Virus record (IMG/VR): IMGVR_UViG_3300026484_000053
Location: 96,001-160,000 of that record
Direction: 5' to 3' (one strand)
DNA length: 64,000 bases
DNA from: a virus
Shown: positions 3,328-59,127 of the stretch, one piece after another
Position numbering within the stretch: position 1 is the stretch's first letter
Layout of the letters: each line of letters begins with the position of its first letter
Translations under genes and position numbers: made by a program
Notes under the pieces: generated by a model
The model's database searches: none
Seen by the model: the letters and a program-made list of their open reading frames with translations, nothing else
What the model was told of the DNA's origin: nothing

Positions 3328-4603
3328 ATTGGATGTAAGTATTAAAAACGTAGAAAAACTTACTAAAAAACACTCTAAAGAATTAAATGAATATATCTCT
3401 AGTAAAGGTATAATAAAGATAGAAGAGAAAATAGATGGTATTAAAATTAACATTATTAAAGCGCATAACACAGGTGATTTAAAACGTGACTTAAAAGTTT
3501 ACTATAAAAACGATTTACTTATATGGGATGAATTTAATTACCTTTCAGACAGTGATATTAAAATGTTTAGTACAGGTAATGCTCAATTTAAATTCTGTTT
3601 AGATGAAGTGTTACGATTTAATAAAGAAGAAATAAAAAAATTAGAAATTAATACAGAGCTATTCTTTGAATACGTTATGCGTAAGAGTACTTTAAGCCAT
3701 ACTTACACAGAATTATTTAATCTTATTTTTATAAAGGCTACAACTGAACAAGATATGAGTTATTTTAAACAAAGATATCCCATCTACGTAGTGAATAATA
3801 ATTATAAAGCACAGTCGCTTGATTTTATGATAAAAAGTTTAAAACAAGATCTTAAAGAATATAGTTCTGTTTATGGTGGAATCAAAGGTACTGCTGAAGG
3901 TTTTGTTATCAAAACCGATATAGGATTATTTAAATTACAGAAAGAATCTCAAAACGACCAAGAAGAAAGAACTAAAATAAAGAACAAGCACCGTATGGAA
4001 CCTTATGCAGAAGAATTATACTGGTCTCAAGTAAGATCAAGTGCTTTATACTTTATGGAAAATAATAGTCACGTTTTAGCATTACCGTATCATAGTAAAA
4101 AGAATAAGGTACAAGTATTAGATGATATAATGGGTAATGTAAAATTTATAACGCACAAGAGACTGCCAGGAAATAACGGTGCGCTATTCATAGGCAAGTT
4201 TAGAGTACTTACAGTACAACATCTTAAAATAATTAAAGAAGCATATAAGGAATACGATACGTTAACTATATGCGTAGTTACTAGTAAAGACACTAAAAGT
4301 ACTAAAGAATTCAGACTTAGCGTGCTTAATGAAGTATTAAAAAAGAATAATATAAAAGCTAACGTGATTAAACATGGAAGTGGAAATATATTTGGTATAA
4401 TGAATAAAAGTGCTTGCAATATTAATGTTATTGTAGCAGGTACAGATAGAGTAGAAGCTTATAGAGAAACTCTTAAAAATAATCCTGACTTAAGTGTATG
4501 CGAAATAAAAAGAACAGATGAAGATTGTAGCGCTACTAAAGCATTTAAAGATATGAGTCTTGTACCTGAAGAGATCAGGTACAGATATTGCGAGTTCGTC
4601 TAA
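3314..4603 (+). CDS. fusion: N-terminal ATP-dependent (RNA/DNA) ligase-type nucleotidyltransferase domain + C-terminal HIGH-superfamily cytidylyltransferase-like domain
   Basis: Ligase motifs EEKIDG (I), FFEYV (III), AEGFVIK (IV), FKL (V); C-terminal FIGKFRVLTVQH...IVAGTDR resembles GRFxPxTxGH...GxDR. Confidence 0.75.
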   Translation: MAKDRLDVSIKNVEKLTKKHSKELNEYISSKGIIKIEEKIDGIKINIIKAHNTGDLKRDLKVYYKNDLLIWDEFNYLSDSDIKMFSTGNAQFKFCLDEVLRFNKEEIKKLEINTELFFEYVMRKSTLSHTYTELFNLIFIKATTEQDMSYFKQRYPIYVVNNNYKAQSLDFMIKSLKQDLKEYSSVYGGIKGTAEGFVIKTDIGLFKLQKESQNDQEERTKIKNKHRMEPYAEELYWSQVRSSALYFMENNSHVLALPYHSKKNKVQVLDDIMGNVKFITHKRLPGNNGALFIGKFRVLTVQHLKIIKEAYKEYDTLTICVVTSKDTKSTKEFRLSVLNEVLKKNNIKANVIKHGSGNIFGIMNKSACNINVIVAGTDRVEAYRETLKNNPDLSVCEIKRTDEDCSATKAFKDMSLVPEEIRYRYCEFV

Positions 4604-5322
4604 AAGTTCATAATGAATCTGTGCTTATACGCTACGCCAGTCTTACTAGCACTAGTCTTGTATTGCTCCCAACCGAACAGTACGTGGCCTTTCTTAGTTT
4701 TCCATTGTGGAAACTCCTTAACCCATACTATACTTTCATCATTAGTATCTTTAGCATATGCAAAGTTGTATGCAGTATTTCTTAGTAACCACAAGAACGT
4801 ACTCCATCCACTTATTGAGTAATCAGCTAAATCACCTTGGTCGAATACTCTACCGTATGCATTAGTCTCTTCTAACTTAGCTAAGTCTCTCTTGAATGCT
4901 TCTCTAACACCTGGTATTTTCAGTGTCCATTGTTCTTTCTCACCTTTTAGTACAGCTCCATTGAACCATGCACTCCAAGTTTCTTGAGTTGAATCATCAT
5001 CGAACCAACCCCATACGAAGAATGCTACATAGTATGTGGCTTTATTTACTGTACGTTTGTGGAAGTAACCTTGAGGTACTGACTTACTTGGATCGAACAG
5101 GTGATGCACTGGCTTAGTAAGTAGTATTTTAGTACCATCTTCTGATAGCTTTGGATTTCTCTGATTGAATCTCTTCACGAATCTATTGTTATCAAACCAA
5201 TAATTATATACTCTATTTCTAGCCCACTTTCTGAACGGTGATAGCAAATAGAACATCGGAATACCTATTAATTTACTTATTATGTCCCATAGAACTAACA
5301 CTGTGTAGTATACGTATTTCAT
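4600..5322 (-). CDS. hypothetical protein with N-terminal hydrophobic helix, tail-fibre-linked (DUF7338-like)
   Basis: ATG at 5322 has a GGGAG RBS and overlaps the upstream TGA; WGWFDDDS and WLLRNTAYNF motifs. Confidence 0.55.
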   Translation of the reverse strand: MKYVYYTVLVLWDIISKLIGIPMFYLLSPFRKWARNRVYNYWFDNNRFVKRFNQRNPKLSEDGTKILLTKPVHHLFDPSKSVPQGYFHKRTVNKATYYVAFFVWGWFDDDSTQETWSAWFNGAVLKGEKEQWTLKIPGVREAFKRDLAKLEETNAYGRVFDQGDLADYSISGWSTFLWLLRNTAYNFAYAKDTNDESIVWVKEFPQWKTKKGHVLFGWEQYKTSASKTGVAYKHRFIMNF

Positions 5323-5771
5323 GATGGTCTCCCTTCTACCCATAATCTACTCTGCTCAGCACCACTTAATGCTAATATAGCTTGTAGATCTAACTTAGTT
5401 AACTGTTCTACTGAATTATCGCTAGTTACCCAGTTTACCGTAGTCTCATCATCAGGTAGTGCATTAATTGCTCTACTCATTCGATCCTGGCTTTTCTCAT
5501 TACCTTGGAACGACGAACCGTTGAACTCTACTACTATATTATCTACTGCTGTAGCTCGTTCAATTTTCCATTCTTTAAGCCGTTCACCTAATTCACTAGC
5601 ATTTATTTTATCCATATCTGGTGTAGTATAATCTGTGTAGTATGCGTAGTAGTTACCTTCAGCATCTACTGCTATATCTTCAACTTGTTCATATCCATTG
5701 TCTATATGGAACTGTAATAGTTCCCCATTACCTAGGGTAGCTAGTACCCCATCTGTTATTTTAGCTATCAT
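5319..5771 (-). CDS. tail fibre assembly protein (DUF4376-like)
   Basis: IVVEFNGSSFQGNEKSQDRM...WVTSDNSVEQLT pattern; directly downstream of the fibre gene. Confidence 0.75.
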   Translation of the reverse strand: MIAKITDGVLATLGNGELLQFHIDNGYEQVEDIAVDAEGNYYAYYTDYTTPDMDKINASELGERLKEWKIERATAVDNIVVEFNGSSFQGNEKSQDRMSRAINALPDDETTVNWVTSDNSVEQLTKLDLQAILALSGAEQSRLWVEGRPS

Positions 5772-5772
5772 C

Positions 5773-8667
5773 TTATTTACCTCCTATGTATGTTATGTTC
5801 AGTGCAGTACCACCATCGCTAATATTTCCGTGTAGTAAGTAATTATCAGAGTCAGCTAAAATAAGATTTACGTGAATAATGTCACCTTTCTTTAATTCAA
5901 GTGTTGTCGTTGTTGTAATTACCGGGTACTTAGCACCATCTTCAGCTTTATCTCTTGAAAAGCCTCCCATACTTTTAATAGACGAGCCGTTTAAGTAAAC
6001 AAGAGTACTAGTCCTACCTACGGTAGTACTTTTATGTCCAAATCTAAAGCGTACTGTTATTATGTAAGTACCGTCTTTTGCGCAAAGCCATAAACCGTTA
6101 GACAACGCATTATGAGTATCTATTGTTGTATCCCAGTTAACTATAGCAGGAGCAGTTAAGTTAGTAGTGCTACGTGCGTTAAGTATAGGTCTATCGATAA
6201 TTTTAACATCGCTAGCTTCAACGTCATTAACTACAATCGTATCAGCTTCCATAGTACCAATAACAGTATCAGCCAAGCTTCTATTATAATCAATATCAAC
6301 TGGTGTTTCACTTGCAACCATAACTGGATGCTTTAAGAACGCTGTTGGTTCTTGTAGTGTTCCTAGTGTTGGTTGTGTTTTGTAGACACTTATGTTGTCG
6401 AAGTATGCTGTGTCGTCATCTCCCGTACCATTCATTTTTAGGATTAACGCTTCCGTTTCATTTTGAGCAACAAATCTTAAATATCCGCTTTCAGATAGAT
6501 TATATCCTGAGATATTTAGTAAAGGATTAACTCCACCCATTGAAGCCTTAACTGTGTATTCTGCACCTATTTCTAGTGTTATATCCTGACTAGCAAAAGG
6601 ATAATCAGTATCATTAGCATTAACAGATAATTGGCCGTTAGACAAACTTAAATTAGCATCATTATTTGCAGTCCACCCGTCAATATCATCGGTAAAACTA
6701 TCTTCAAATATAGCGCCGCCAATAGTATCATATGATTTACCATCAATATTAACTAATCTATTATCATCAGCACTTGTTTTTGTATATAAACCATTCATAG
6801 GCTTCTTATCTTCAAATCTCCAAGTACCATCTGATTTTCTACCAACCCATTTAAGTCCATCACTAACGCCACTAAAATCAATAGTTCCAGTAAACTTTTC
6901 AGTTGAATGCACATACCCTTGACCATCAATACCATTAGTTGTTATAAATGTACCATTTACAATGTTTAGATTCGTGTCGTCAGTTGGTAAATTAAAGTAA
7001 GTATCGTCAGGCGTTGTTGTAGCATTTGTGTCTATGTATCCCATATATAGGTATTGCCCGTTTAGTGCGTTAGTTTGCTCAGATGTGGCAGATACTTCAA
7101 AATACCCATAAGGAAATTGGGATATAATTGCACTGTCAATTTCTGCTGCGGCTGCTAAATTCAAACTATACCCTTCTCCTTGCCTGGCACTGTCAAATAC
7201 TTTCCAATCACCAACATCATCAATCCTCTTAATAACAACATCTCTTAACTTAACCTCTTTACCATTAACATCTTTAGTAACAATCTTATTACCAGCACTA
7301 CCTGTACCAATATAAGTACCTATTGTAAATGTTTCTGATTTACATTTGTAATACATCATTATCACCGAATCTGCTATATTTTCTGCACCTGACTGTGGTA
7401 CAGCTATGCTTGTCTCAGATACAGTGTACCTTTTGTTTGCTGGGTTAAGTAGTTTGTTGTCCACATTAGCTTCTAGATAGCCATATTCTCTGTAACTTGC
7501 GAGCCAAGACCTATCGTCATTTAAACTTTTACTCACCCAGTAACCCAACTCAACCCCAGCACTATGACTAATCTGATGTCCAGCAATACCACTTCCAAGA
7601 TACATTATCATACCTTCTTTAGTAACAGGATTGTATGCTTCTACATAGAATTTATTATGTGAAGTCATTCCCCATTTGATATGAGTATATAGTGTTTGGT
7701 ATAGTACATATGTTTCTGCGTCTGCATTTACACTTGTGTCATTATCGTAAACAACCGTAACACCAGAAGCAGTAAACTCGCTTACTTTGTCAGGGTTTGA
7801 ATTTTCAGCAGCAATTGTGTCTGTAAAGATTCTTTTATCTATCCCTCTCAGTCCATCGATAACTCCATTAGAGTTATCTGCACTTTGAATCTTGTAACGA
7901 ACCTTACTAGTATTAGCAACACAGCTACCACTTCCATTACCAGCTACGGGCAATATCGATAGGTTACTAAATGTAGCTGTAGCATCGTCTTCAGGACTAT
8001 ACATTGAACAATATACATCAATACCAGCGTCTTCTGTTAAGGTAAACACTCCGCCTATAGTCCCATTAATGTAAGAAGAATTTACTATTATTCCCTCCGA
8101 ACCTGTACCTTCTAAGTTGGCATACATCATAGGAGATGTGCCTGCAGCCTCCACACTAAGGAAGTATGACCCAGCCGATAGCTGTATAGTTTCTATAGCG
8201 TATGGATAATCAGAATCATCAGCGTTAACACTCAAGACACCTCCGTTTACACTTAAGTTAGCATCATTTACAGCAGTCCAGTTACTAACATCACTTGTGT
8301 CATTACTAGAGTCTATCAAATCAACAGCATCATCAGCAATAACTGCAAATCCACTACCTACTCTTTTATTATAAAAGCCACTTCCATTATTTGGTTGAGT
8401 AAAGTCAACTGAACTAATTCCAGTAGCTATCTCCTGAGTATCTCCATTACCAGTATAAGTAACTACAGCATGGTTCTTAGTCTTTGAAAATCCGTCTATA
8501 CTCGAAGAGCTAGAATTCATAAGAACGTTAGTAACACTCATATTAGGAATCTTACCCTCAACCTTTTGTAATTCAGTTTGAGTAGCAACATCAAAATTAA
8601 GATTTCCAGTACTTACTACGTTATTTTGTACTTTATCTATACCAGTACTTCCCGTTATTTTAGTCAT
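5773..8667 (-). CDS. tail fibre / receptor-binding protein with two inserted lectin-like modules and a C-terminal C1q-like domain
   Basis: YTGNG and YIGTG fibre motifs, IKRID..DWKVFDSAR; duplicated WTAxNDANLS module; C-terminal DGTYIITVRF...LELKKGDII. Confidence 0.75.
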   Translation of the reverse strand: MTKITGSTGIDKVQNNVVSTGNLNFDVATQTELQKVEGKIPNMSVTNVLMNSSSSSIDGFSKTKNHAVVTYTGNGDTQEIATGISSVDFTQPNNGSGFYNKRVGSGFAVIADDAVDLIDSSNDTSDVSNWTAVNDANLSVNGGVLSVNADDSDYPYAIETIQLSAGSYFLSVEAAGTSPMMYANLEGTGSEGIIVNSSYINGTIGGVFTLTEDAGIDVYCSMYSPEDDATATFSNLSILPVAGNGSGSCVANTSKVRYKIQSADNSNGVIDGLRGIDKRIFTDTIAAENSNPDKVSEFTASGVTVVYDNDTSVNADAETYVLYQTLYTHIKWGMTSHNKFYVEAYNPVTKEGMIMYLGSGIAGHQISHSAGVELGYWVSKSLNDDRSWLASYREYGYLEANVDNKLLNPANKRYTVSETSIAVPQSGAENIADSVIMMYYKCKSETFTIGTYIGTGSAGNKIVTKDVNGKEVKLRDVVIKRIDDVGDWKVFDSARQGEGYSLNLAAAAEIDSAIISQFPYGYFEVSATSEQTNALNGQYLYMGYIDTNATTTPDDTYFNLPTDDTNLNIVNGTFITTNGIDGQGYVHSTEKFTGTIDFSGVSDGLKWVGRKSDGTWRFEDKKPMNGLYTKTSADDNRLVNIDGKSYDTIGGAIFEDSFTDDIDGWTANNDANLSLSNGQLSVNANDTDYPFASQDITLEIGAEYTVKASMGGVNPLLNISGYNLSESGYLRFVAQNETEALILKMNGTGDDDTAYFDNISVYKTQPTLGTLQEPTAFLKHPVMVASETPVDIDYNRSLADTVIGTMEADTIVVNDVEASDVKIIDRPILNARSTTNLTAPAIVNWDTTIDTHNALSNGLWLCAKDGTYIITVRFRFGHKSTTVGRTSTLVYLNGSSIKSMGGFSRDKAEDGAKYPVITTTTTLELKKGDIIHVNLILADSDNYLLHGNISDGGTALNITYIGGK

Positions 8668-10111: not shown

Positions 10112-12019
10112 TTATGCTAGTTTACTAACACCATTATCATTTAGTTTTACACCGTCTTCATAAACGTCAATATACATTAAATCTTCACCAGCGCTTGAAT
10201 TCATTGCATCTCCATAATTAGTAATTTGATACTTTATACCTGTAAGTTCTACCCATATCTTATCTGTACCACTAAGAATGCCACATAAATTGCTCATGTA
10301 ATCTTCTTTATTAATATTCGTACTAAATCCAATAGGCGGCACGTCTATAACCTCTCCAGTTTCGTATACAGTAAAAGTAGTGTCTCCAATACTATAAAGA
10401 GCTCTAACTACTTCTGCTCCGAATGGATCAAAATTATAACTATCCACAAAAGAATACTCTTCCATAGCTATTCCATCACTGTATAATATATTATCTTGGT
10501 TATTCGCTATTTCTTGAGCAGTAAATGTCTCGTTATATCGTTGCGTTCTAGCATCGAAATCTTTTCCTATATGGAACGATGCGTCTGTATCTCCAATAAC
10601 TTGATATTTGTTATACGCGTCTCTGTCTGGATCGAACGATGGCTCTCCGATAAACCATCCATTACTTACTGTAGTTAATTCTCTCTGAAAATAATCTATG
10701 CTTTCATCTTCAATATCAGTAGTTTCTTCGTCGCTTATAACTATTGTTTCTAATACTTGCACGTTGTATTGTAAAGTATCTGTACTTGGAAGTGTTTTTA
10801 TAAGTCTACCATTATATGCTCTAGATCTTTCTAGTATCTCTTCAGACGTTATTGTTCTTCTTTCATAATATTTCTTGTCGTTGTTATCAAGAGGTATATC
10901 TCCACCAAGATCTATTTCTATCGAGCTATAATACCATTCTTCAGACGAATCTCCAAATATTTGAAACATCACAAGTAAGTTTCTATCATCATTAAGACTA
11001 TACTGTCTGTATTTTATATAATCAGTACTTCCGTTAGTGTTTAAACTTGTTTCATCAATAACACCATCATTAACGTCACTTAATTTAACATTAGATACTT
11101 CTATATTAGTAAAGTCATAAAATCTAACCTTATTTTCATAATCTTTAACTATTTGAACTAATGTAGGCTCTTCCTGATATTGAACTAATATGCTGACATT
11201 CTTAGATCCTTTTACATCATATTCTTCGTATTTTATAGCTTCTCCACCGTCTAGTAAGTCTATTACAGTTTTAGCTCCATTCTCTACGTTATATGATGTA
11301 TGAGTAAGAACATCTACCTTCTTTGTAATTTCAACACTATAGAAATCTTCGAATATAGCCGTAACAAGTTTGTAAAATAAGTAATCAAATCCTAGTGGGT
11401 GAGCTAATGGTTTAACTGCCTCGTCAAATACTTCCTTATAGATACTACTTTCTACTCTATAAGAAAACGGTTCGTTAGGATCTAGTTCAGTACCTTCAAG
11501 TACGTTAAGGAAATCACCCTCAGAAACATCCTGAAGTTGTGCCTTGTTTACAAGGTCGAATATATAATAGAACGCTGCTGCAGTACCTTTCTTTTGTTTG
11601 TAATCTTTATTAGAGTTAATATAAGAACTATCAAGCACTTCCTGTAACTTGTTATCCATAACAATATCGTTAACAGGTAAATCAAGTATCTCGTATATCT
11701 TTTTAAACTTATTAAATACAACTTCAGATGATTGAACATTATCAAATGTTCTAACTATCTCTTGTAAGTACATATCAAGTACTTCTTTTTTAGCGTCTCT
11801 ATATCTTACATCATTAGTTTCTTCATATTTGTAATTTAAGAAGTCTAAATCTCTAACTTCGTTAGGATAAGCACTAAGATATGAAGAGTCTTTCATATAA
11901 TCCATATAAATTTCAAGTAAAGAGTTTACCTTCTCGTTTTCTCTTATACTGTCAGGAACTAACTTCATGAACAGATCTGATATTTCTTGCGGTGATAATT
12001 TTATTTCTGAATTTGTCAT
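10112..12019 (-). CDS. baseplate wedge protein, T4 gp7-like
   Basis: YKQKKGT and VKPLAHPLGF motifs; lies directly after gp6. Confidence 0.65.
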   Translation of the reverse strand: MTNSEIKLSPQEISDLFMKLVPDSIRENEKVNSLLEIYMDYMKDSSYLSAYPNEVRDLDFLNYKYEETNDVRYRDAKKEVLDMYLQEIVRTFDNVQSSEVVFNKFKKIYEILDLPVNDIVMDNKLQEVLDSSYINSNKDYKQKKGTAAAFYYIFDLVNKAQLQDVSEGDFLNVLEGTELDPNEPFSYRVESSIYKEVFDEAVKPLAHPLGFDYLFYKLVTAIFEDFYSVEITKKVDVLTHTSYNVENGAKTVIDLLDGGEAIKYEEYDVKGSKNVSILVQYQEEPTLVQIVKDYENKVRFYDFTNIEVSNVKLSDVNDGVIDETSLNTNGSTDYIKYRQYSLNDDRNLLVMFQIFGDSSEEWYYSSIEIDLGGDIPLDNNDKKYYERRTITSEEILERSRAYNGRLIKTLPSTDTLQYNVQVLETIVISDEETTDIEDESIDYFQRELTTVSNGWFIGEPSFDPDRDAYNKYQVIGDTDASFHIGKDFDARTQRYNETFTAQEIANNQDNILYSDGIAMEEYSFVDSYNFDPFGAEVVRALYSIGDTTFTVYETGEVIDVPPIGFSTNINKEDYMSNLCGILSGTDKIWVELTGIKYQITNYGDAMNSSAGEDLMYIDVYEDGVKLNDNGVSKLA

Positions 12020-12028
12020 CTTATTTCC

Positions 12029-15000
12029 TTATATTTGATCTGTAAATACAACTGACTTTAGTCTCGCAAACGAAGTTCGTTTTAAGTTAATGTTATCATT
12101 TTTAGCGTTTATATTAAGTATTCTAGTAGTTTCTAACATGTTAGTAGGTATAGGCTGTATACCAGTATCGTTAGCGTAACTTTTAAACACTGGCTTGTCT
12201 ATACCAGTACCGTCTTGTATATATTCTTTAACTTCTTTAAAGTTGTCTTGCGTAGAAGTATATATTTTAAAAGAAACAATTGCCTCATTAACGTATATAA
12301 TATAATCACCTATTTTTACAGTGTCTTCATACGCAGGTAATTGAACTAACTCTCCGTCTTGCATACCTTGCGCATCGTCTCTAATAAAAGTATACATTAC
12401 GGGTATTTTAATAATAACTGAGTTAGAATCGACTACACTAGTTTGATTACCAACGTAATTAAATCCTATCTTATTATCAAAGTCTAAAAATATCTTATCT
12501 CCATTTGTAAAACAGTCATTAGCACTTAGATTGTAAACTAATTCTTGTCTAAAATCACCTACTTGCTCAATTTCACCTTTTTCATTGTAAATTAGAGGAG
12601 TGAATAAACTTTCAGTTGGAAGACCAAAGAATATCTCGTAATCAAGTACTCCATTTGGTAATCCGTTAGTGTGTATAACATTAAAATTATCTTTGTTAAA
12701 CGACGCATTAACTGTAACTGACATATCAAATCCAACTGTATCTCTAACTTCTTTATCAATGTATTTTATCATAGTAGAGTTAAAGAAAGTACTATCGAAT
12801 ACCTCTATAGAACCGTTAAAATATTCTTTAATTACGTTAAACACCTTAATGTTAGACTCTGTTATCGTTTCACCTCTATTTCTATTAAGTAAGTTCAGCT
12901 TAATAGAATAATCAATATAAACTGGATTTTTATGTTTAAGCTGTATAGTAATAACTTTATATCCGTTAAGAATATTAAACAGACTATTCTTCTCGTCGCC
13001 ACTTATTTGCGATTCTGGTAAGTAAAAATATTCTCTTTCATTAGAGTTGTTTAAAGTAAATTCATTAGCATTTTTAACACTAAATCCAGTTTTTCTTGAG
13101 TTAGGAGTTATACTAAAGAAAACATGACCAAGTTCTTTTTGCGGTACTTGCTCTTCTCCACCCCATATTTGCGCCTTTTCAACGAATGATTGTTTATTAC
13201 AAATAGTAACATAATCATTCTTAGTAACTGCTCTATTAGCTGTATTGTTAAATAACGGCGCAAATTCTCTAATTTCTTCATCACCTTCTTCGTCAGCTCC
13301 AATAACATTAGTTACTACATTAATACCATCACTGAACTGTACAGCTTCAAAACTATCAAATTCTGGAGTTATAAGTGACTCGGTATTACCTAAAGCACCA
13401 GAAGATCGTAATATATTAAATCTAAAATACATGTTTGACTCATATTTAGTTCCACTTCCTGCGTATCTAGAATATACTTTTAAGTATTCTGGAAAGTCTA
13501 AATCTTGAAGAACTACATACGTGGCGTCTTCACCTTGGGATTTTTCAGCTATAAGGAAATCTCTTTTAGTCCATAACTTATTTTCTTCAATATCTCCGTT
13601 TGGTAATGTTCTAGTAACAAACATCTCAACTCCGTTATCTTCAACGTCTTTAGAGTCTATAAGTATAAACTGATCTTTTAGTATTTTAGGTGAAGATGCT
13701 TTATTGTACTTAGGAAATTCAACGTCGCCGTCTTGAAAATCTGTGTACTTACTTACTGTACCTTCTTGAACTATTAATTCAATAGTTTTCTTTTCTTGTA
13801 CGTCCTTTATTAATGAGAATACAGTGTTTTTATCGAAAGCGCTATAAGTAACTTCTCCGTCTACTATAGTTGTAGTACACTTAGATATTCTATTAGTTTT
13901 AGTACTAGAGAAGATAACGTCCATTTCAACACCGTCTACATCATTGATAGTACTAGAATCAGTTATATCGAATAATAGTACACCTGTTTCAGCGTCGAAG
14001 TTAATACATGTAAATCCATCAAACGTATCGCTGTGCTTGATATCGTCACTAAAGAATTTATGTATAAGCGTACCGTCTGCATTTTTATCGCTTTTATAAG
14101 TAACTCTTACTTGAGTATCGTTATCAAGAGCTAAACTAGTGCAGTCTATACCTCTTTCATCTCCTGCCAATTCACCGTCTACAGGAGCTACTATAGAGTT
14201 AATATCTGCTTGAACATAATTAGTACCGTCATAAACTTCGAATAACTGCACGTTTTTAATCCTACCTTGAACAACTACTTTATTGTCCTGAACTAGAAGT
14301 TCTTCTGTAGAAGTATCGCATACAGGAAATTCAAGACCTTCAGTCGGTTCGATCTGAATTTTAAACTCGGTACCATCATTATCTATTTTAGTAGCATTAA
14401 CTATACCATTTAATACATAATTGCCACTTATATCGAAATCAGAGCTTTTTGTGTATAAAGAAGTTTGTACAGTTCCACCTTTAACTACTTCACCGTCTAT
14501 AGTTTTAACAAGGAATTTTTGGTTATCTATTTCATCTATCTTTCTTAGAACTTGCAATAACGCACCGTCTTCTGTTCTTAAATAATCTTCTACATTACAA
14601 GATTGGAATTCATTAGTACCATTAAGAGAGTTGTTATATTCGTTATTCAGCATCTCAACATTTATAAACGAACCATAATCTCCCTGCAAGTCTTCGCCAA
14701 GATAAACATAATCCTTACCTTCACTTTTAAACTTACTATATTTTGATATTATTACATTACCTTCATCTTTAGACTTAAGTCTAATTTTATACTGGTAAGA
14801 TACTTTTCTTTTAGGATTATAAGACAATTCGAACGCATGTTTTCTAATGTTAGTACTATCTTTAGCTTGCGTTATAAACGATTCGTTTAGACCATGAGTA
14901 ACATTTATATTATTCATGGCTGCGTTATAAGCTAGCATGTTTATCATTTGCGATATATTAGATCCTTCGTATTGCGCATCGTCAAGACCATATACTTCTT

Positions 15001-15061
15001 GAGCTTGTAATCTAAGCTCAGCCTTTATTTCCTCTACTTTATAAGGTATAATGTTTATCAT
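12029..15061 (-). CDS. gp6: baseplate wedge subunit gp6 with a large internal insertion
   Basis: YEGSNISQMINMLAYN...ESFITQA...LSYNPKR and NRAVTKNDY motifs. Confidence 0.85.
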   Translation of the reverse strand: MINIIPYKVEEIKAELRLQAQEVYGLDDAQYEGSNISQMINMLAYNAAMNNINVTHGLNESFITQAKDSTNIRKHAFELSYNPKRKVSYQYKIRLKSKDEGNVIISKYSKFKSEGKDYVYLGEDLQGDYGSFINVEMLNNEYNNSLNGTNEFQSCNVEDYLRTEDGALLQVLRKIDEIDNQKFLVKTIDGEVVKGGTVQTSLYTKSSDFDISGNYVLNGIVNATKIDNDGTEFKIQIEPTEGLEFPVCDTSTEELLVQDNKVVVQGRIKNVQLFEVYDGTNYVQADINSIVAPVDGELAGDERGIDCTSLALDNDTQVRVTYKSDKNADGTLIHKFFSDDIKHSDTFDGFTCINFDAETGVLLFDITDSSTINDVDGVEMDVIFSSTKTNRISKCTTTIVDGEVTYSAFDKNTVFSLIKDVQEKKTIELIVQEGTVSKYTDFQDGDVEFPKYNKASSPKILKDQFILIDSKDVEDNGVEMFVTRTLPNGDIEENKLWTKRDFLIAEKSQGEDATYVVLQDLDFPEYLKVYSRYAGSGTKYESNMYFRFNILRSSGALGNTESLITPEFDSFEAVQFSDGINVVTNVIGADEEGDEEIREFAPLFNNTANRAVTKNDYVTICNKQSFVEKAQIWGGEEQVPQKELGHVFFSITPNSRKTGFSVKNANEFTLNNSNEREYFYLPESQISGDEKNSLFNILNGYKVITIQLKHKNPVYIDYSIKLNLLNRNRGETITESNIKVFNVIKEYFNGSIEVFDSTFFNSTMIKYIDKEVRDTVGFDMSVTVNASFNKDNFNVIHTNGLPNGVLDYEIFFGLPTESLFTPLIYNEKGEIEQVGDFRQELVYNLSANDCFTNGDKIFLDFDNKIGFNYVGNQTSVVDSNSVIIKIPVMYTFIRDDAQGMQDGELVQLPAYEDTVKIGDYIIYVNEAIVSFKIYTSTQDNFKEVKEYIQDGTGIDKPVFKSYANDTGIQPIPTNMLETTRILNINAKNDNINLKRTSFARLKSVVFTDQI

Positions 15062-15085
15062 TTATTTCTCCGTTTGGATTTTCTG

Positions 15086-15445
15086 TTATTGGAATACTAT
15101 GTTTGTTGTATGTACGTCGTCGAATTCTTTAATGTTGTAATCTATCTTAATGCTTACTCTATTATAATCTGAATCTTCAGTAGCAACTATTTGTTCTATT
15201 TGGATTCTTTTCTCGTACTTTTTAAGTTGTTCTCTAATTTCTTCTTCTATAAGTGTTAATATAAGTGGATTTATAGTTTCAAACAAAAATCTACGTAAGT
15301 TACAACCAAAATCAGGTTCACCAGGTACTGTACCTCTTTCTGTCATAACTATGTTTCGTATAGCATTATCTACGGCACTATAGTTAGTATTATTAGGTAC
15401 TAAAGCACCTTTAGACTCTATTCTAGAACTTACATCAATATACAT
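15086..15445 (-). CDS. gp25: baseplate wedge subunit gp25
   Basis: AIRNIVMTERGTVPGEPDFGCNL..LFE...YEKRI. Confidence 0.9.
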   Translation of the reverse strand: MYIDVSSRIESKGALVPNNTNYSAVDNAIRNIVMTERGTVPGEPDFGCNLRRFLFETINPLILTLIEEEIREQLKKYEKRIQIEQIVATEDSDYNRVSIKIDYNIKEFDDVHTTNIVFQ

Positions 15446-15465
15446 AGATACTCCTCATTTGTTAA

Positions 15466-15473
15466 TATTTATA
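15466..15473 (-). promoter_or_regulatory. T4-type late promoter
   Basis: Exact TATAAATA upstream of gp25. Confidence 0.75.
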
Positions 15474-15486
15474 ATAAAGTATACGT

Positions 15487-16386
15487 CTAGAACAGGTCTG
15501 ATACGAAAGGAGTTTTCTTACTATAAGAAGATGTACTAAATTGATCGATGCTAAAACCAGATTTAGTACACATTTTAGCATTTAATTCTGTTTGCGCTTC
15601 TTCTTTAACTTTAGTGTATTGTCTATGCTTATTTTGTTGTTTAAATAGTTTTACTTTTTCTTGTGGTGTGTACTTTCTATCTTTTTTACCTTCTATTAGC
15701 TGTAAATCAAGTTTACCATTTGAAGGATTAATAGGTAGTACATAACCATTAATGCTATTACCGTCTTTATATATTACAGGATCTATATCTTCCACACTAT
15801 TCTTACCTTCTGTACAGTTCTCATTAATACATTCTCGCATTTTCTTTATAGATTGTATAAGAGCAAATAAGTTAGTCATCTCTAAGAAATTATTAAAAAT
15901 ATCTATTGCTACGTATAATGCTCTTTCAAATGCATTACCTACCATTGACATAACATCCAGTAGTTCGTTGTTAACGTCACGTTGTAGTCCACTAAGATAA
16001 GCTAACGATGGATTAGCATAATCCCATACTGCATTTTTAGTTAACCAGCTTGGTGATGGAGCACTTGGACTTAAAAAAGATAAATCCATATTCAGTACAT
16101 CTTCTAGACATTCTCTCTGTTTAGTGTCTTTTTCTGTACTTTTACTACCTTCGCCGCCTACATCTACGTTAGAGTCTATAATTTTATCAGTCATATCATC
16201 TAGTTTGTCAACAGCGTCTTGCACGTTACCGTATAATCTATTAGCAGTCATAATAGTTGATTTTACTTGACTAACAGCGTTGTTATATCTTTCAATAGCA
16301 CCCTTACACTTAACTCCTTTATCAAAGTTATCGTAATGCAGCGTGCTTGGCGTGTTTTTTGTAAAGTTATTTATGTTATAAACCAT
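15487..16386 (-). CDS. hypothetical protein in the baseplate operon
   Basis: 299-aa ORF with GGAG RBS between gp5 and gp25; no motif recognised. Confidence 0.6.
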   Translation of the reverse strand: MVYNINNFTKNTPSTLHYDNFDKGVKCKGAIERYNNAVSQVKSTIMTANRLYGNVQDAVDKLDDMTDKIIDSNVDVGGEGSKSTEKDTKQRECLEDVLNMDLSFLSPSAPSPSWLTKNAVWDYANPSLAYLSGLQRDVNNELLDVMSMVGNAFERALYVAIDIFNNFLEMTNLFALIQSIKKMRECINENCTEGKNSVEDIDPVIYKDGNSINGYVLPINPSNGKLDLQLIEGKKDRKYTPQEKVKLFKQQNKHRQYTKVKEEAQTELNAKMCTKSGFSIDQFSTSSYSKKTPFVSDLF

Positions 16387-22201: not shown

Positions 22202-22217
22202 TGTATTTATAAATACA
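22202..22217. promoter_or_regulatory. bidirectional T4-type late promoter
   Basis: Perfect 16-bp palindrome TGTATTTATAAATACA with TATAAATA on both strands, between divergent tail and head operons. Confidence 0.8.
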
Positions 22218-54605: not shown

Positions 54606-55439
54606 CTACGCGTTGTATGCGTAAGTAACTGTAGCGTCAAGTCCGTCGTAATCGCCAGCATTATCAACTGCTAGTGTAACTTCTTTAGCGTCATCAACTG
54701 TACATTCTACTAAGTCAAACGTACCGTCACCATTGTTTATACTAGCAACACCTGTAAATATACAATTATCTAATGGTTGGTTAGTTAATGTAAACTTATC
54801 AGAAGAAACTGACTTAGTTTCATTTATAAACTTAGTACTTACTGTACTAACTGCGTCATCAACATAAGTTTTAATTGTAGCTCTATCAGATAACTTAGTA
54901 GTTTCTAATGTCCAATCAGCTTCAGTTGTAACGTCACCATCTCTTAATAAGTCAGCACTTTCAGTATTATCAATCTTATCGAAATCAGTACCTGCAGTTG
55001 CTCCAACTACTGTAGCATTAGCGTAGATAGTATCATTAACTTCCATTTCAAGGCCATCAATTGTCCCCGCTACTGTTACTTTGTATAACCAACCTTTAGT
55101 TACGTCAGCTGGTAGTGCTCCACTTGATGCATCAAATCCACCTTTATAAACAACTCCACCACTAAGTCCATCTAGTAAATCTTTTAACGATTTAACTGCC
55201 TTACTTGATGCAACGTTTGTTTCACTGTCTAAATCTAAATCATTACTGATACTAGTTTTGTCTATTTTTAAGTCGTTACCAACTTTGAATGCATTAGCAC
55301 CTATGAATTTATCATCAAATGCTGCTGTACCATCTACTGTAGTAACGTCAGTTACAATGTCATTCGCTCTGTGAATTCTATCATCTAGTTCTGTCTGTAA
55401 ACCTTTTACAAAGGCTACTCTTCTTTTAATTGCTGCCAT
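54606..55439 (-). CDS. putative fibre/decoration protein
   Basis: YKGGFDASSG...GWLYKVTVAG...VND.IY..DFDKIDN module typical of phage fibre proteins. Confidence 0.65.
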   Translation of the reverse strand: MAAIKRRVAFVKGLQTELDDRIHRANDIVTDVTTVDGTAAFDDKFIGANAFKVGNDLKIDKTSISNDLDLDSETNVASSKAVKSLKDLLDGLSGGVVYKGGFDASSGALPADVTKGWLYKVTVAGTIDGLEMEVNDTIYANATVVGATAGTDFDKIDNTESADLLRDGDVTTEADWTLETTKLSDRATIKTYVDDAVSTVSTKFINETKSVSSDKFTLTNQPLDNCIFTGVASINNGDGTFDLVECTVDDAKEVTLAVDNAGDYDGLDATVTYAYNA

Positions 55440-55537
55440 AATTTTTCTCCTATTATTTTAGTATATGCGCTCTGATTAACGCGAATCTTCTCCCTTTATC
55501 CAAAGCACATGCTCCCCACTCCAGGTATTTTATTATT

Positions 55538-56770
55538 TTATTTTTTCAGTTTTGCAGGTATTCTTATTTCAAAAGTAGTGCCCTTAGGTGTAGACTCAAC
55601 TATTTTAACATCGCCTTTTACTTCATTAAGCAAATACTTACTTAAATACATACCATTACCTCTAGTTTCGCCAACTCCTGCTTTAGTACTAAAATTAGCA
55701 TCGAATACTTTCTTCCATATATTTTTCTTTATACCATTACCGTTATCCATAAACCTAACTGTTAAATAGCCTTTATCAAAGTCTATAAAGGCTACATGTA
55801 TTCTGTTAGCGTTAGCCTCTATTGAGTTCTTAATATAGTTAATGAATATGCTCATTAAATCTGCGTTTTTCATCTTTTCAAGTCCATAATTAGCAAGTTC
55901 ACTATCAGTGGTAAACGTAAAGTTACTTTCTATAACAGACATTGTTTTAAATGAGCCTTTCATTATATTGGCAATTGACTTATTACCGTTACTGTATCTA
56001 AGATGCTTAAATCCTTTCATTTTTTCAAGGATGGCATATATTTGTTCAGATGAAGTTTTAATATACTCAAAATCTTCGTCAAGTTTTTTAAACGTATCGT
56101 ATCTTGTTATTCTGTCTTCACTAGCGTTGTCGAGAGCGTCGATACGTGCCTTTTCTTCTTTTAAAGTCTTTATCATAACGTTATGAACTTTCTCAATCTT
56201 GTTATCTATTACTTCTAATGGTGTATTTAGTTCATGATGTATGTTTTCTGTGATGTTTATCATTGTTTTGTTGGCTAGTAACGCTTCGTTACCAGATTGG
56301 CTTACTATATTTGATAGCTTCTCGTCTTTCATAATAATGATACTTATTATCATTAAGTAAAACAATAGAAAAGGTAGAGACAGCATAAATACGAATAACA
56401 ATTTTTCTTTTTGCGCTGCTACGTCAAAAGTTATAATGTATTGTGAACATCTAAAAAATAGCTCAAAAGTCTTGAAGTCAAAACCGTAGTCGTTATATTC
56501 TACGCTAGAAGATATATTAGAGCGTGTTATCCTTTTAAGCTCTTTCTTATCGTATATATACATTTTATCCTTAAAACTTATACTTTTACATTGAAATAGT
56601 TTACAAGTATCGTCAACGCTTATAGGATGACCTTGTTTTGCTGACATGTAAAGCATTTCTTGCTTTAATTCATTTATGTCGTAAATTTTTGACATAAAGA
56701 ATATAACACCAAAAGAAGCGAGAAGCATTATTAATGATCCAAGCATTCTTTCTATTATTTTAATTACCAT
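55538..56770 (-). CDS. membrane sensor histidine kinase
   Basis: Two TM helices; H-box ENIHHELNTPL; N-box NYIKNSIEA; G1 DNGNGI; F-box FDANFSTK; G2 RGNGMYLSK. Confidence 0.92.
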   Translation of the reverse strand: MVIKIIERMLGSLIMLLASFGVIFFMSKIYDINELKQEMLYMSAKQGHPISVDDTCKLFQCKSISFKDKMYIYDKKELKRITRSNISSSVEYNDYGFDFKTFELFFRCSQYIITFDVAAQKEKLLFVFMLSLPFLLFYLMIISIIIMKDEKLSNIVSQSGNEALLANKTMINITENIHHELNTPLEVIDNKIEKVHNVMIKTLKEEKARIDALDNASEDRITRYDTFKKLDEDFEYIKTSSEQIYAILEKMKGFKHLRYSNGNKSIANIMKGSFKTMSVIESNFTFTTDSELANYGLEKMKNADLMSIFINYIKNSIEANANRIHVAFIDFDKGYLTVRFMDNGNGIKKNIWKKVFDANFSTKAGVGETRGNGMYLSKYLLNEVKGDVKIVESTPKGTTFEIRIPAKLKK

Positions 56771-56791
56771 ATCTAGGCTCTGTTTAGTTAC

Positions 56792-57388
56792 TTAATAAAA
56801 TATTACAGAATAAAGAGCTGCTACTATAAAACTACCAACTATAGCAAATATAGCACTGTTAAAATACGTCATAGACTCGTCGTGTTGAGCACCTTGACCA
56901 AGAGTATATATGTTATCCTTAATCTTAAACTGTTTAAAAGAAACGTATTCTACACTCTCGTCAAACAGCCATTCAGTATTACCAGTCTTATCAGTCTGTG
57001 CAGATAAAAATTCATTAACAGCGTTAATACAAGTTTCAGGTTTTTTAAACAATTTACAAACACTTTCACTAGTCATGAATAACGCGTCAATATTGTTTAG
57101 TTTACAGTCAGTACTAGAATCCCATATTAACATTTTATCAAAATGTCTAATTACAAAAACATCACCAGTTATTCCCATACTTCTAGAACCTTTAGCACAA
57201 ACATCAAGAGCGTTTATAAAATTACGTTCGTCTTCCAGAGAACCAGGTATACCTTCTATACATACTTTTATGTTATGTATATTAAGTTCATTTTGTGATA
57301 CAGCTGTGTTTTTAACACTATATTGTAACGTGGAAATTGTAACATAACATAACGCTACTAAAATAATTATACCAGATATTTTCTTCAT
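56792..57388 (-). CDS. two-TM membrane protein with a Cys-rich extracytoplasmic domain
   Basis: N- and C-terminal hydrophobic helices; six Cys in the loop; directly upstream of the kinase. Confidence 0.7.
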   Translation of the reverse strand: MKKISGIIILVALCYVTISTLQYSVKNTAVSQNELNIHNIKVCIEGIPGSLEDERNFINALDVCAKGSRSMGITGDVFVIRHFDKMLIWDSSTDCKLNNIDALFMTSESVCKLFKKPETCINAVNEFLSAQTDKTGNTEWLFDESVEYVSFKQFKIKDNIYTLGQGAQHDESMTYFNSAIFAIVGSFIVAALYSVIFY

Positions 57389-57407
57389 ATTCTACCTCTG
57401 TTTTATG

Positions 57408-57423
57408 ATTATTTATAAATAAT
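57408..57423. promoter_or_regulatory. bidirectional T4-type late promoter
   Basis: Perfect palindrome ATTATTTATAAATAAT between divergent genes. Confidence 0.7.
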
Positions 57424-57443
57424 TATAAACTTAAGGATGTAGA

Positions 57444-57749
57444 ATGATTTACTGTATAGCTGAATTTGAAGCAAAAGAAGGACGAGCTGATGAGTTATTT
57501 AACGCTCTTAAGCAATTAGAAAAAGAAACCAGGGTAGAACAAGGGTGTATTCAGTATATCGTTATGCGGAAAATATTAAATAATTACGCTAAAGGAGATC
57601 ATAAAGGTATTATATTTAATGAAATATGGGAAACTGAACAAGATTTTAATGCGCATAATGAAAGTAATCATGTACAAAAATTCTTTAAAGAACAATGCTT
57701 AAACGAAAACGGATCTACATTATCTTGGAATGTTAACTGCTTCAGCTAA
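57444..57749 (+). CDS. antibiotic biosynthesis monooxygenase (ABM) family / putative quinol monooxygenase
   Basis: AEFEAKEG...TRVEQGCIQY...NEIWE...FNAHNESNHVQKF. Confidence 0.85.
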   Translation: MIYCIAEFEAKEGRADELFNALKQLEKETRVEQGCIQYIVMRKILNNYAKGDHKGIIFNEIWETEQDFNAHNESNHVQKFFKEQCLNENGSTLSWNVNCFS

Positions 57750-57775
57750 CAGAGCCTGTTAGGATTCTATATAGC

Positions 57776-58534
57776 TTACTGCTTTGAATCCTTGTGCCAA
57801 CCAAATTTAGTGCTTATAAACTTTCTTCTAGAATCCATGTCTAGCGACGTTTTATAAAGCACATACTTATTAATATTATCTCCATTCTTAGCATTAAAAC
57901 GATCAATTAAAATTTGGTTAGTTTTAATGTAAGGATTAAGATTATTTCCTGTGTAAAATAGGAAATTCACATCTGGGTTTTTATCAATCATGTCACAATA
58001 TATGTCAACACCATTTAATTTTAAATTGCCATCAGCGGTCATTGTACTTCCACCTATAGTAATATCTATTATAGCGTATTTAATGTTCAAATTATGCGTC
58101 TGTTGAAGAATTCTATATCTGAATGCAGCAAGCTTAGAGCTTATGCAAAGCACGTTAAAATCACTTAATTTTATTCTGCCCTCTTCATCAAAGTACTCTA
58201 AGTCATCTTTTAGAAATGAAACAACACCTTCATTGTCATCTATAAGTAATATAGTTTTCTTTCCTTCTTTAAATTCTTTGCCAAGTTTAAAATTCCATCT
58301 ACAACTCTTCCAACACTGTTTTGATGTACAAGACGCATCAAACTCACAGTCGTATTTACTTTCTTTGTCGTCTTTAAATAGCTGACTAGAAGTTGGTTTT
58401 TGGGTATTACGTTTCTTATCTATTAATGTTTTAGCAGTTTTAGCAGTTTTAGCAGTTTTTGATACCACTACACTTTTAATAGAAGTAATCCAGTCTTTAA
58501 TTGTTTTAAATGTTTTATAAACGTATTTCATCAT
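57776..58534 (-). CDS. response-regulator receiver-domain protein with a Cys-cluster N-terminal extension and no output domain
   Basis: ILLIDDNE, AIIDITI (phospho-Asp), FLFYTG, LYKT; CEFDASCTSKQCWKSC. Confidence 0.8.
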   Translation of the reverse strand: MMKYVYKTFKTIKDWITSIKSVVVSKTAKTAKTAKTLIDKKRNTQKPTSSQLFKDDKESKYDCEFDASCTSKQCWKSCRWNFKLGKEFKEGKKTILLIDDNEGVVSFLKDDLEYFDEEGRIKLSDFNVLCISSKLAAFRYRILQQTHNLNIKYAIIDITIGGSTMTADGNLKLNGVDIYCDMIDKNPDVNFLFYTGNNLNPYIKTNQILIDRFNAKNGDNINKYVLYKTSLDMDSRRKFISTKFGWHKDSKQ

Positions 58535-58548
58535 TTCTCCTTTATACT

Positions 58549-59007
58549 TTAAATTATGAATTTTCCAACAGCAGTTATAACTTTAATAAACGCGTCTGGT
58601 GCAAATATTGCAGCAGCAGCTAAAGTTATAATAGCAGCGTACATCATAAGAACTTTAACATCTTTTAGATTTTTAGCCTTATTGAGCACGGCACTAAACG
58701 AATTTTGATTAGTATTTGCTTGTGTTGTTTTAGATTTAATCATTTCCTTCACTATTTTTTCTTTCTGATCTATTAATTGGTTAAAAGAGTCTACAATAAT
58801 GTCACTAAACATTGATTGATTGGTTTCTAATTTATCGTTAATAAAGACTATGAATTGTATTAATTCTTGGTGTTCTGGATACTTACTAGTAAGTAAAATT
58901 AAAGAATTATGAAAATCTTGTGTACTAGAACCTATGATTTCAAGTTGGTTATTAAAATCATGTTTAAGTTCATGTAAAGACTTTTCTATATCTTTTAAAT
59001 TTTCCAT
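58549..59007 (-). CDS. coiled-coil protein with a C-terminal membrane anchor (holin-like topology, unproven)
   Basis: Helical N-terminus; LMMYAAIITLAAAAIFAP hydrophobic segment. Confidence 0.6.
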   Translation of the reverse strand: MENLKDIEKSLHELKHDFNNQLEIIGSSTQDFHNSLILLTSKYPEHQELIQFIVFINDKLETNQSMFSDIIVDSFNQLIDQKEKIVKEMIKSKTTQANTNQNSFSAVLNKAKNLKDVKVLMMYAAIITLAAAAIFAPDAFIKVITAVGKFII

Positions 59008-59072
59008 GCAAACTCCTTTATATTTTAGTATTATTTATCTACTAAGTTACACATATTCTGTTTTAATATAAA

Positions 59073-59095: not shown

Positions 59096-59127
59096 GTATT
59101 ATAAACAAGACAAAATAAAGGTTAAAA

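Follow-up and report, generated by a model that had tools for sequence, protein, structure and literature searches.

A probable virus-specific two-component system with late-type promoter boxes in the genome of a T4-like myovirus

Gene content of the locus and its protein families

We examined a two-component signaling locus in a 64,000-nt stretch of viral DNA (here called the window), which comprises positions 96001 to 160000 of the 193.7-kb IMG/VR record IMGVR_UViG_3300026484_000053, rated as complete by CheckV. An earlier note on this DNA, made from the letters alone, had placed four minus-strand open reading frames (ORFs) at 55538 to 59007, and all four were present as claimed (Table 1). 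In the order of transcription, the module consists of the genes for a 152-aa tail-anchored protein, a stand-alone receiver, a 198-aa membrane protein, and a sensor histidine kinase; a plus-strand gene for an ABM-domain protein, which that note had omitted, sits in the middle of the module, between the receiver and 198-aa genes. The module kinase is the sole histidine kinase of the genome, and a genome-wide search found no second receiver. The genome is that of a myovirus: the minus-strand block that encodes its tail sheath (PHROG 23; E 5e-83) also holds the gene for a baseplate wedge. The sheath is 40 to 42% identical to the sheaths of T4-like Vibrio and Campylobacter phages, which supports a T4-like assignment, and the proposal that a T4-like myovirus carries a complete kinase and receiver pair was borne out.

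Table 1. Features of the module and its immediate surroundings, in window positions (AF2, AlphaFold2)
Feature	Position	Strand	Basis or remark
Tail-anchored helical protein, 152 aa	58549-59007	minus	ORF, hydropathy, AF2; conserved as the opening gene of the module
Divergent stand-alone receiver, 252 aa (251 aa from second ATG)	57776-58534	minus	Motifs, AF2, Foldseek
Four-Cys stretch C-x5-C-x4-C-x3-C in the N-terminal extension of the receiver	58301-58348	minus	Sequence
Predicted phospho-acceptor Asp codon of the receiver (motif IIDITIGG; D156 in 251-aa, D157 in 252-aa numbering)	58064-58066	minus	
Hairpin between the convergent receiver and ABM genes	57746-57762		7-bp stem with 3 GC pairs
ABM-domain protein, 101 aa	57444-57749	plus	PF03992, E 9.1e-16; PDB 2bbe, E 2e-5
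Palindrome TATTTATAAATA, T4-type late-promoter box on both strands	57410-57421		Sequence
Protein with transmembrane segment, Cache/PDC-like extracytoplasmic domain, and transmembrane segment, 198 aa	56792-57388	minus	
Sensor histidine kinase, 410 aa	55538-56770	minus	Pfam, alignments, hydropathy
H-box IHHELNTPL, predicted phospho-acceptor His179	56216-56242	minus	KinB alignment, family invariance
GATAAATA, late-box variant with one mismatch	59032-59039	minus	32 nt upstream of the 152-aa gene
Sigma-70-like site TTAACC-16-TATAAT	59098-59125	minus	10 of 12 matches; upstream of the 152-aa gene

The kinase is, as had been claimed, a complete histidine kinase with two transmembrane (TM) segments, in which all catalytic boxes are present. 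Hydropathy placed the hydrophobic segments at residues ~10 to 32 and ~126 to 147, giving a layout of TM1, an extracytoplasmic domain of ~90 aa, TM2, a dimerization and histidine phosphotransfer (DHp) domain with the H-box, and a catalytic and ATP-binding (CA) domain; no HAMP or PAS domain was found. The CA domain matched Pfam HATPase_c (PF02518; E 2.6e-14; 54 bits against a cutoff of 26.4), and the match to Pfam HisKA reached an E value of 0.099 only, below the cutoff of that model. The H-box aligned with that of KinB (PDB 3d36), and the cytoplasmic part could be aligned over its full length with NCBIfam models such as FixL and PhoR, in every case far below their cutoffs. Across a family alignment of 29 sequences, which are 31 to 43% identical overall to the window kinase, the H-box residues H178, H179, E180, N182, T183, and P184 were invariant, as were N311/N315, D342-G344-G346, F356, and G371-G373 of the N, G1, F, and G2 boxes. 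The Cys pair C56/C61 of the extracytoplasmic domain was kept in at least 90% of the alignment. By its H-box and CA domain, the window kinase belongs to the HisKA-type sensor kinases, and it is predicted to autophosphorylate. The E-x-x-T form of the H-box in HisKA kinases accompanies phosphatase activity; the window kinase carries this motif and is therefore probably bifunctional.

The receiver, for which gene callers choose the second ATG, had been described as lacking a DNA-binding output and as carrying a Cys-rich extension, and both features held. The protein gave no Pfam hit at E < 0.1 and contained no Pfam DNA-binding domain, and a search of the whole genome with PF00072 found nothing. 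Membership of the receiver superfamily therefore follows from fold and motifs, not from the Pfam model. In the AF2 model, the predicted local distance difference test (pLDDT) score was 88 to 97 over residues 90 to 245, which form five strand-helix units in a (beta-alpha)5 fold. Foldseek returned 77 PDB matches at E ≤ 0.001, nearly all of them receivers; the best was Spo0F (6ifh; E 2.9e-5; TM-score 0.73), and others included ComE, NtrC1, RssB (rank 15), and CpxR. D98, D99, D156, T194, and K227 (251-aa numbering) were invariant in 26 sequences of the receiver family; in a distant set of 38 sequences, D98 and K227 remained invariant, and D99 and D156 were at least 90% conserved. These residues sit in the model at the ends of beta1, beta3, beta4, and beta5, with the acceptor Asp D156 ending beta3. 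The stretch FYTGNNLNPYIK, on the alpha4-beta5 side, is also very conserved; this side is the usual output face of receivers.

A wider receiver profile matched receivers in the PDB (3cu5, E 3.4e-4; CheY and Spo0F marginally), and 7 of the 38 distant relatives matched PF00072 weakly (best E 8.4e-5). A word-indexed search returned ~30 clusters of relatives, and an exhaustive profile search found 295 representatives (50% identity) among 1.84 billion proteins, placing the family far from ordinary receivers. The N-terminal 85 residues were modeled with low confidence and hold the four-Cys motif (residues 63 to 78 in 252-aa numbering), N-terminal to the receiver fold. Most relatives have C-x2-C-x5-C-x9-C in its place; ahead of the receiver domain, ~42% of 130 family members have at least four Cys and ~31% have none. 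In its spacing, C-x2-C-x5-C is reminiscent of the Fe-S ligands in FNR and WhiB-type proteins. The four-Cys motif is probably metal-binding. At its N-terminus, the receiver also contains a (TAK)3 repeat, KTAKTAKTAKT (58427 to 58459, minus strand), inside an extension of ~30 residues that is missing from relatives.

The stop codon of the 198-aa gene precedes the start of the kinase gene by 21 nt. The product of the 198-aa gene had been noted as an adjacent, Cys-rich extracytoplasmic protein with two TM segments; such a protein is present and may be better read as a stand-alone Cache/PDC-like sensor domain. Hydropathy gave a TM segment at each end, with five of the six Cys between them and no cytoplasmic domain. 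In a single source, the ESM Atlas, the feature score was 0.96 and the ten best named clusters all belonged to the Cache clan; the model from the same source matched the N-terminal sensor ends of methyl-accepting chemotaxis, GGDEF, and histidine kinase proteins with TM-scores of 0.72 to 0.78 over 178 to 187 residues. No Pfam Cache family was matched even at E ≤ 10, and no Pfam, NCBIfam, or PDB sequence match was found. Relatives were absent from viral contigs, metagenome contigs, five related phage records, and the fetched loci. The modeled protein thus resembles a transmembrane receptor reduced to its sensor end, with no output domain, and is a candidate co-sensor of the kinase. The motif CKLF, reported in both extracytoplasmic parts, is indeed present in the 198-aa protein and in the kinase; however, the distance to the next Cys differs (C-x4-C versus C-x8-C). 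A similarity between the two sensor domains was rejected, since BLASTP gave nothing significant and only CKLF is shared. The shared CKLF may be due to chance.

The 152-aa protein had been described as a membrane-anchored coiled coil. The anchor stands, as a tail anchor, but the prediction is of four bundled helices rather than a coiled coil: the AF2 model, of moderate confidence (pLDDT 68), is all helical, with helices at residues 2 to 24, 29 to 42, 44 to 60, and 64 to 98, followed by a linker and a C-terminal TM segment at ~116 to 152. Because basic residues precede the TM segment and there is no signal peptide, the bundle would lie in the cytoplasm. Foldseek gave no match to this model at E ≤ 0.001, and VIA-align gave generic helical bundles only (Z ≤ 9.5); assignment to a known fold was rejected on these grounds. 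The family has at least 14 sequences and no invariant His. In Pfam and PHROGs, none of the 14 members matched a family of holins, XhlA, or lysis proteins, and the suggestion that the gene encodes a holin found no support beyond the C-terminal TM segment. To our knowledge, a single C-terminal TM segment with a cytoplasmic bundle of ~110 aa is not a known holin topology. By sequence comparison, the 152-aa protein is a new family without annotation.

Promoter boxes and transcription units

The box TATAAATA occurs 19 times in the window, a number not above chance. Its placement is far from random: 11 of the 19 copies lie within 57 nt upstream of a gene start on the same strand in the virion-gene block, that is, the minus-strand run with the sheath and baseplate genes (binomial P ~5e-11). 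By analogy, this positioning fits the late-promoter rule established for T4. As the earlier note had reported, one copy stands above the kinase operon (57410 to 57417, minus strand), preceding the 198-aa gene by 21 nt, and the variant GATAAATA was found near 59032, before the 152-aa gene. The first of these is one half of the palindrome TATTTATAAATA, which also gives a plus-strand TATAAATA 22 nt before the ABM gene and, from its sequence, would drive both the 198-aa/kinase unit on the minus strand and the ABM gene on the plus strand. Another overlapping box pair, at 22204 to 22215, falls between divergent genes.

In at least 7 of 11 relatives, the module is preceded by the exact TATAAATA, 23 to 35 nt from its first gene, for which a simple model gives a chance P of ~1e-15. 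Late expression, as predicted from these boxes, is therefore a conserved trait of the module, and the late timing proposed for the window's own copy agrees with it. The number of sigma-70-like sites in the region equals the number expected by chance; the site upstream of the first gene could possibly, and weakly, serve as an additional early promoter.

Because the plus-strand ABM gene splits the module, the latter would be read as two transcription units. The hairpin between the convergent receiver and ABM genes is a candidate two-way terminator closing the first of these. No homologue of the ABM gene was found at the related loci fetched. The neighbors of the module in the window are tail-fiber-like genes and early plus-strand genes. 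A 98-nt spacer (55440 to 55537) separates the kinase stop from the next tail-fiber-like gene (54606 to 55439); it contains neither TATAAATA nor a clear terminator, so the kinase may share a transcript with the downstream tail-fiber-like genes.

Conservation and distribution of the module

Hidden Markov models (HMMs) of the tail-anchored, receiver, and kinase families were scanned over all fetched loci. In 13 of 13 relatives for which that DNA was available, the kinase gene follows the receiver gene directly, so the order of the pair, whose conservation had been put forward as a check, is kept throughout. A tail-anchored protein of 150 to 200 aa precedes the receiver in 11 of the 13 (9 by HMM and 2 by architecture). 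The window is the only locus at which receiver and kinase stand apart, with the ABM and 198-aa genes between them. After the kinase, nine distinct relatives encode a small protein of 77 to 106 aa with a signal-like N-terminus, and seven encode a protein of 365 to 420 aa ending in Y/F-x-F. These two kinds of gene (in related contigs, given here by L numbers: L002, 7206 to 8746; L003, 7193 to 8739; L004, 9952 to 11507; L010, 9234 to 10705; L017, 7155 to 8683; L019, 7127 to 8479) are both absent from the genome of the window, and their products gave no Pfam or PDB sequence match. On the basis of its signal-like N-terminus and C-terminal Y/F-x-F only, the larger protein is a putative outer-membrane barrel.

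The module had been thought unusual. This holds for cultured phages: DNA and protein searches, including tblastn, gave no match to the locus, the kinase, or the receiver in 50,697 deposited phage records. It does not hold for metagenomes, where the module is widespread, with at least 168 clusters of kinase relatives (90% identity) and the 295 receiver representatives; the kinase relatives all lie on contigs of ≤194 kb, the metagenomic ones reaching 185 kb. The module is also present in phage records of 96 kb and 272 kb that are complete or nearly so. Among 185,579 species genomes, the kinase family had two hits, on contigs of 2.0 and 5.8 kb from metagenome-assembled genomes (MAGs). Because the distribution is nearly confined to viral DNA and the gene order is conserved, recent capture from a host is ruled out.

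Several of the related loci showed further features. A variant in L005 (6995 to 9593) has the receiver followed by a 286-aa protein with two TM segments and a PAS domain but no kinase domain, and the receiver is preceded there by a soluble protein of 339 aa, not a tail-anchored one. On the 185-kb contig L010, at least 11 consecutive small ORFs (69 to 157 aa) flank the module on both sides (4206 to 6858 and 10774 to 11764) and form a paralogous family with a common C-terminal [YFH]-P-[ED]-x-[FYL]-[ILV] motif (for example, YPEDFI, HPELFV, and FPEYFI). In L004 (4792 to 7469, minus strand), a ClpX-like gene appears as two ORFs (565 and 329 aa), both with ClpX matches, and may be split or carry an insertion. 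In L006, a nearby gene (13929 to 15506) has a weak intein-splicing hit.

Proposed mechanism, alternatives, and known systems

We think it probable that the module is a functional two-component system, specific to this lineage of viruses and expressed late in infection; phosphotransfer and expression are predictions from sequence. In the proposed mechanism, the kinase would sense an envelope or periplasmic cue at the inner membrane through its ~90-aa Cys-pair domain, in this phage probably in cooperation with the neighboring stand-alone Cache-like membrane protein. It would autophosphorylate at His179 and pass the phosphate to Asp156 of the receiver-only protein, a transfer that we infer from the strict adjacency of the two genes in the 13 relatives. 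Since the receiver has no DNA-binding domain, its output would be protein-protein contact. The likeliest partner and target, being the fixed third gene and conserved along with the pair, is the tail-anchored four-helix protein of the inner membrane, which would tune a late, envelope-linked step of infection. A more specific version is tentative and on balance doubtful: in this version, the circuit is found only in viruses, its metal-binding receiver switches the tail-anchored protein and so decides, late in infection, the timing of lysis or the response to superinfection or to envelope and redox stress, and its input has been rebuilt with a captured Cache sensor.

Several observations weigh against a functional two-component system of this kind. 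The window receiver falls below the Pfam threshold, and the few matches to its family profile set it far from canonical receivers. Such receivers usually have K-P, whereas this family has an invariant K-T-S and a beta-hairpin inserted after the acceptor Asp, so that an atypical receiver chemistry is conceivable from both sequence and model. Gene order is the sole basis for the contact between the receiver and the tail-anchored protein. The Cache reading of the 198-aa protein comes from one tool, against empty Pfam and PDB sequence searches. The late box of the first transcription unit has one mismatch. Finally, no relative has the 198-aa or ABM gene, and most carry the secreted and putative outer-membrane genes instead; the sensing arrangement is therefore not conserved.

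One alternative assigns the module to the timing of lysis: the phosphorelay would delay or trigger lysis on superinfection or in response to envelope state, with the tail-anchored protein acting on holin or antiholin. The late promoter boxes, the sensor parts facing the periplasm, and the membrane anchor of the third component all agree with this idea, as does a GH108/PG_binding_3 endolysin ~2.5 kb downstream of the kinase in L010. However, L010 was the only one of four related contigs with Pfam tables to have an endolysin within 3 kb of the module; in L004, L005, and L006, the precomputed tables show no lysis gene nearby. The 193.7-kb genome itself gave no match to PF00959, PF01464, PF01510, PF11031, or PF05838. 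T4 lysozyme, SLT, and Amidase_2 were without a match anywhere, and holin T (PF11031) gave nothing at E ≤ 0.1; GH108 (PF05838) had no match but was not matched in control genomes either, making its absence uninformative. The lysis genes of this genome would therefore be of unrecognized types. The lack of holin, XhlA, and lysis matches in the 152-aa family and the tail-fiber-like and early genes beside the module also speak against a role in lysis, which we regard as unlikely. Considered as an analogy, lysis inhibition is compatible with the late timing and the membrane topology; the lack of holin T lowers the case that the module is a lysis-inhibition system, not the case that it works like one.

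A weaker alternative is that the receiver acts on a protease or on the host, either as an adaptor or regulator for the ClpX-like unfoldase of the phage or by plugging into the flagellar switch or the two-component systems of the host. CpdR and RssB act on ClpXP, and a ClpX-like gene lies divergently beside the module in six relatives (L002, L003, L004, L006, L014, and L015). The genome of the window encodes ClpX too, but ~130 kb from the module, and no ClpX gene is adjacent in L010, L013, L017, L018, L019, or L020; where the linkage exists, it may merely be inherited gene order. The structural matches to the receiver include RssB, although it ranks no better than other receivers, and nothing links the module with chemotaxis. 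A role of this kind is quite improbable.

The interruption of the module by an opposite-strand gene and the receiver scores below Pfam thresholds would suit recently captured, nonfunctional host genes in decay, but this is very hard to credit: the catalytic residues are all invariant across families that have diverged to 20 to 45% identity, every reading frame is intact, the kinase family is missing from cellular genomes except the two small MAG contigs, and the gene order is kept across phages of 96 to 272 kb. The idea that the 152-aa protein is a histidine phosphotransferase like Spo0B, ChpT, or HPt proteins, or a phosphate sink, in a multistep phosphorelay (with LHELKHDFNN as H-box) is likewise most improbable. 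The weak Pfam SPOB_a match (E 0.002; residues 2 to 25) occurs in 1 of 14 members, the window's own copy; HPt domains appear among many four-helix-bundle matches (Z 7.2 to 7.9), but Z values below ~13 are uninformative for helical bundles; and the genome has no second receiver. None of the four His is invariant, with H12 and H16 varying freely, H33 replaced by Y or N, and H46 replaced by Q. With no conserved His and with SPOB_a confined to the window copy, the protein is thus not read as a phosphotransferase.

The predicted two-component system resembles classical HisKA systems with stand-alone receivers (Spo0F, CheY, DivK, and CpdR) in its kinase boxes (H, N, G1, F, and G2), its DD-D-T-K residues and (beta-alpha)5 fold, its adjacent genes, and, by inference, its output through protein contact. 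Unlike them, it is encoded by viruses and nearly confined to them, its receiver is too divergent for PF00072 and has the Cys4 extension, the hairpin after the acceptor Asp, and K-T-S, and it includes a fixed third gene for a tail-anchored four-helix protein of no known family. Accessory membrane proteins modulate kinases in several bacterial systems (YycH/YycI with WalK, LiaF with LiaS, and QseG with QseE). The 198-aa protein, or the secreted protein of the relatives, may be comparable, being small, kinase-adjacent, and without an output domain. A QseG-QseE structure, 9m08, appears among the VIA-align matches of the 152-aa protein. In contrast to these accessory proteins, to which it has no sequence relation, the 198-aa protein has in its model the shape of a chemoreceptor or kinase sensor cut off from the rest of the molecule, and it occurs in this phage alone.

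Among phages, the Clostridioides difficile phage phiCDHM1 carries an agr cassette (AgrB, AgrD, and AgrC) with no phage response regulator; its agr genes are 60 to 70% similar to host genes, and the signal is thought to reach the host (PMC4124054). Both phages thus bear a membrane histidine kinase that senses, or here would sense, an extracellular cue, but the module has its own receiver, and its kinase and receiver have no close cellular relatives. In T4 lysis inhibition, the periplasmic domains of RI and holin T bind each other directly, without phosphorylation (PMC11413866). The module would, as predicted from its genes, likewise be a late, periplasm-sensing membrane system of a T4-type phage; unlike T4, the genome has no holin T homologue, and the module proteins are unlike T or RI in Pfam and PHROG comparisons. 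The cREC proteins of jumbo phages are reported never to be found with histidine kinases and to be linked to NAD/ADP-ribose enzymes (Iyer et al. 2021, PMC7824862). Like the receiver described here, cREC is a divergent receiver-fold protein of large phages that has kept the catalytic Asp residues; in contrast, the module receivers lie directly next to histidine kinase genes in the relatives. Our literature search found no paper on a complete phage-encoded kinase and receiver module, and phage two-component systems go unmentioned in a 2026 review of phage communication.

No annotation exists for the families of the receiver and the tail-anchored protein, nor for those of the secreted and putative outer-membrane proteins encoded by the relatives. 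The parts of the module are small and well defined, which makes the question of its function directly testable. Lytic phages are usually viewed as running a fixed program. Known exceptions, among them lysis inhibition in T4, arbitrium, and eavesdropping on quorum sensing, work through transcription factors or direct binding. If the module is indeed a functional two-component system, many large uncultured phages would be measuring something beyond the cytoplasm during virion assembly. If it further proved to control lysis or the response to superinfection, no earlier decision circuit of a lytic phage would have been based on phosphorylation.

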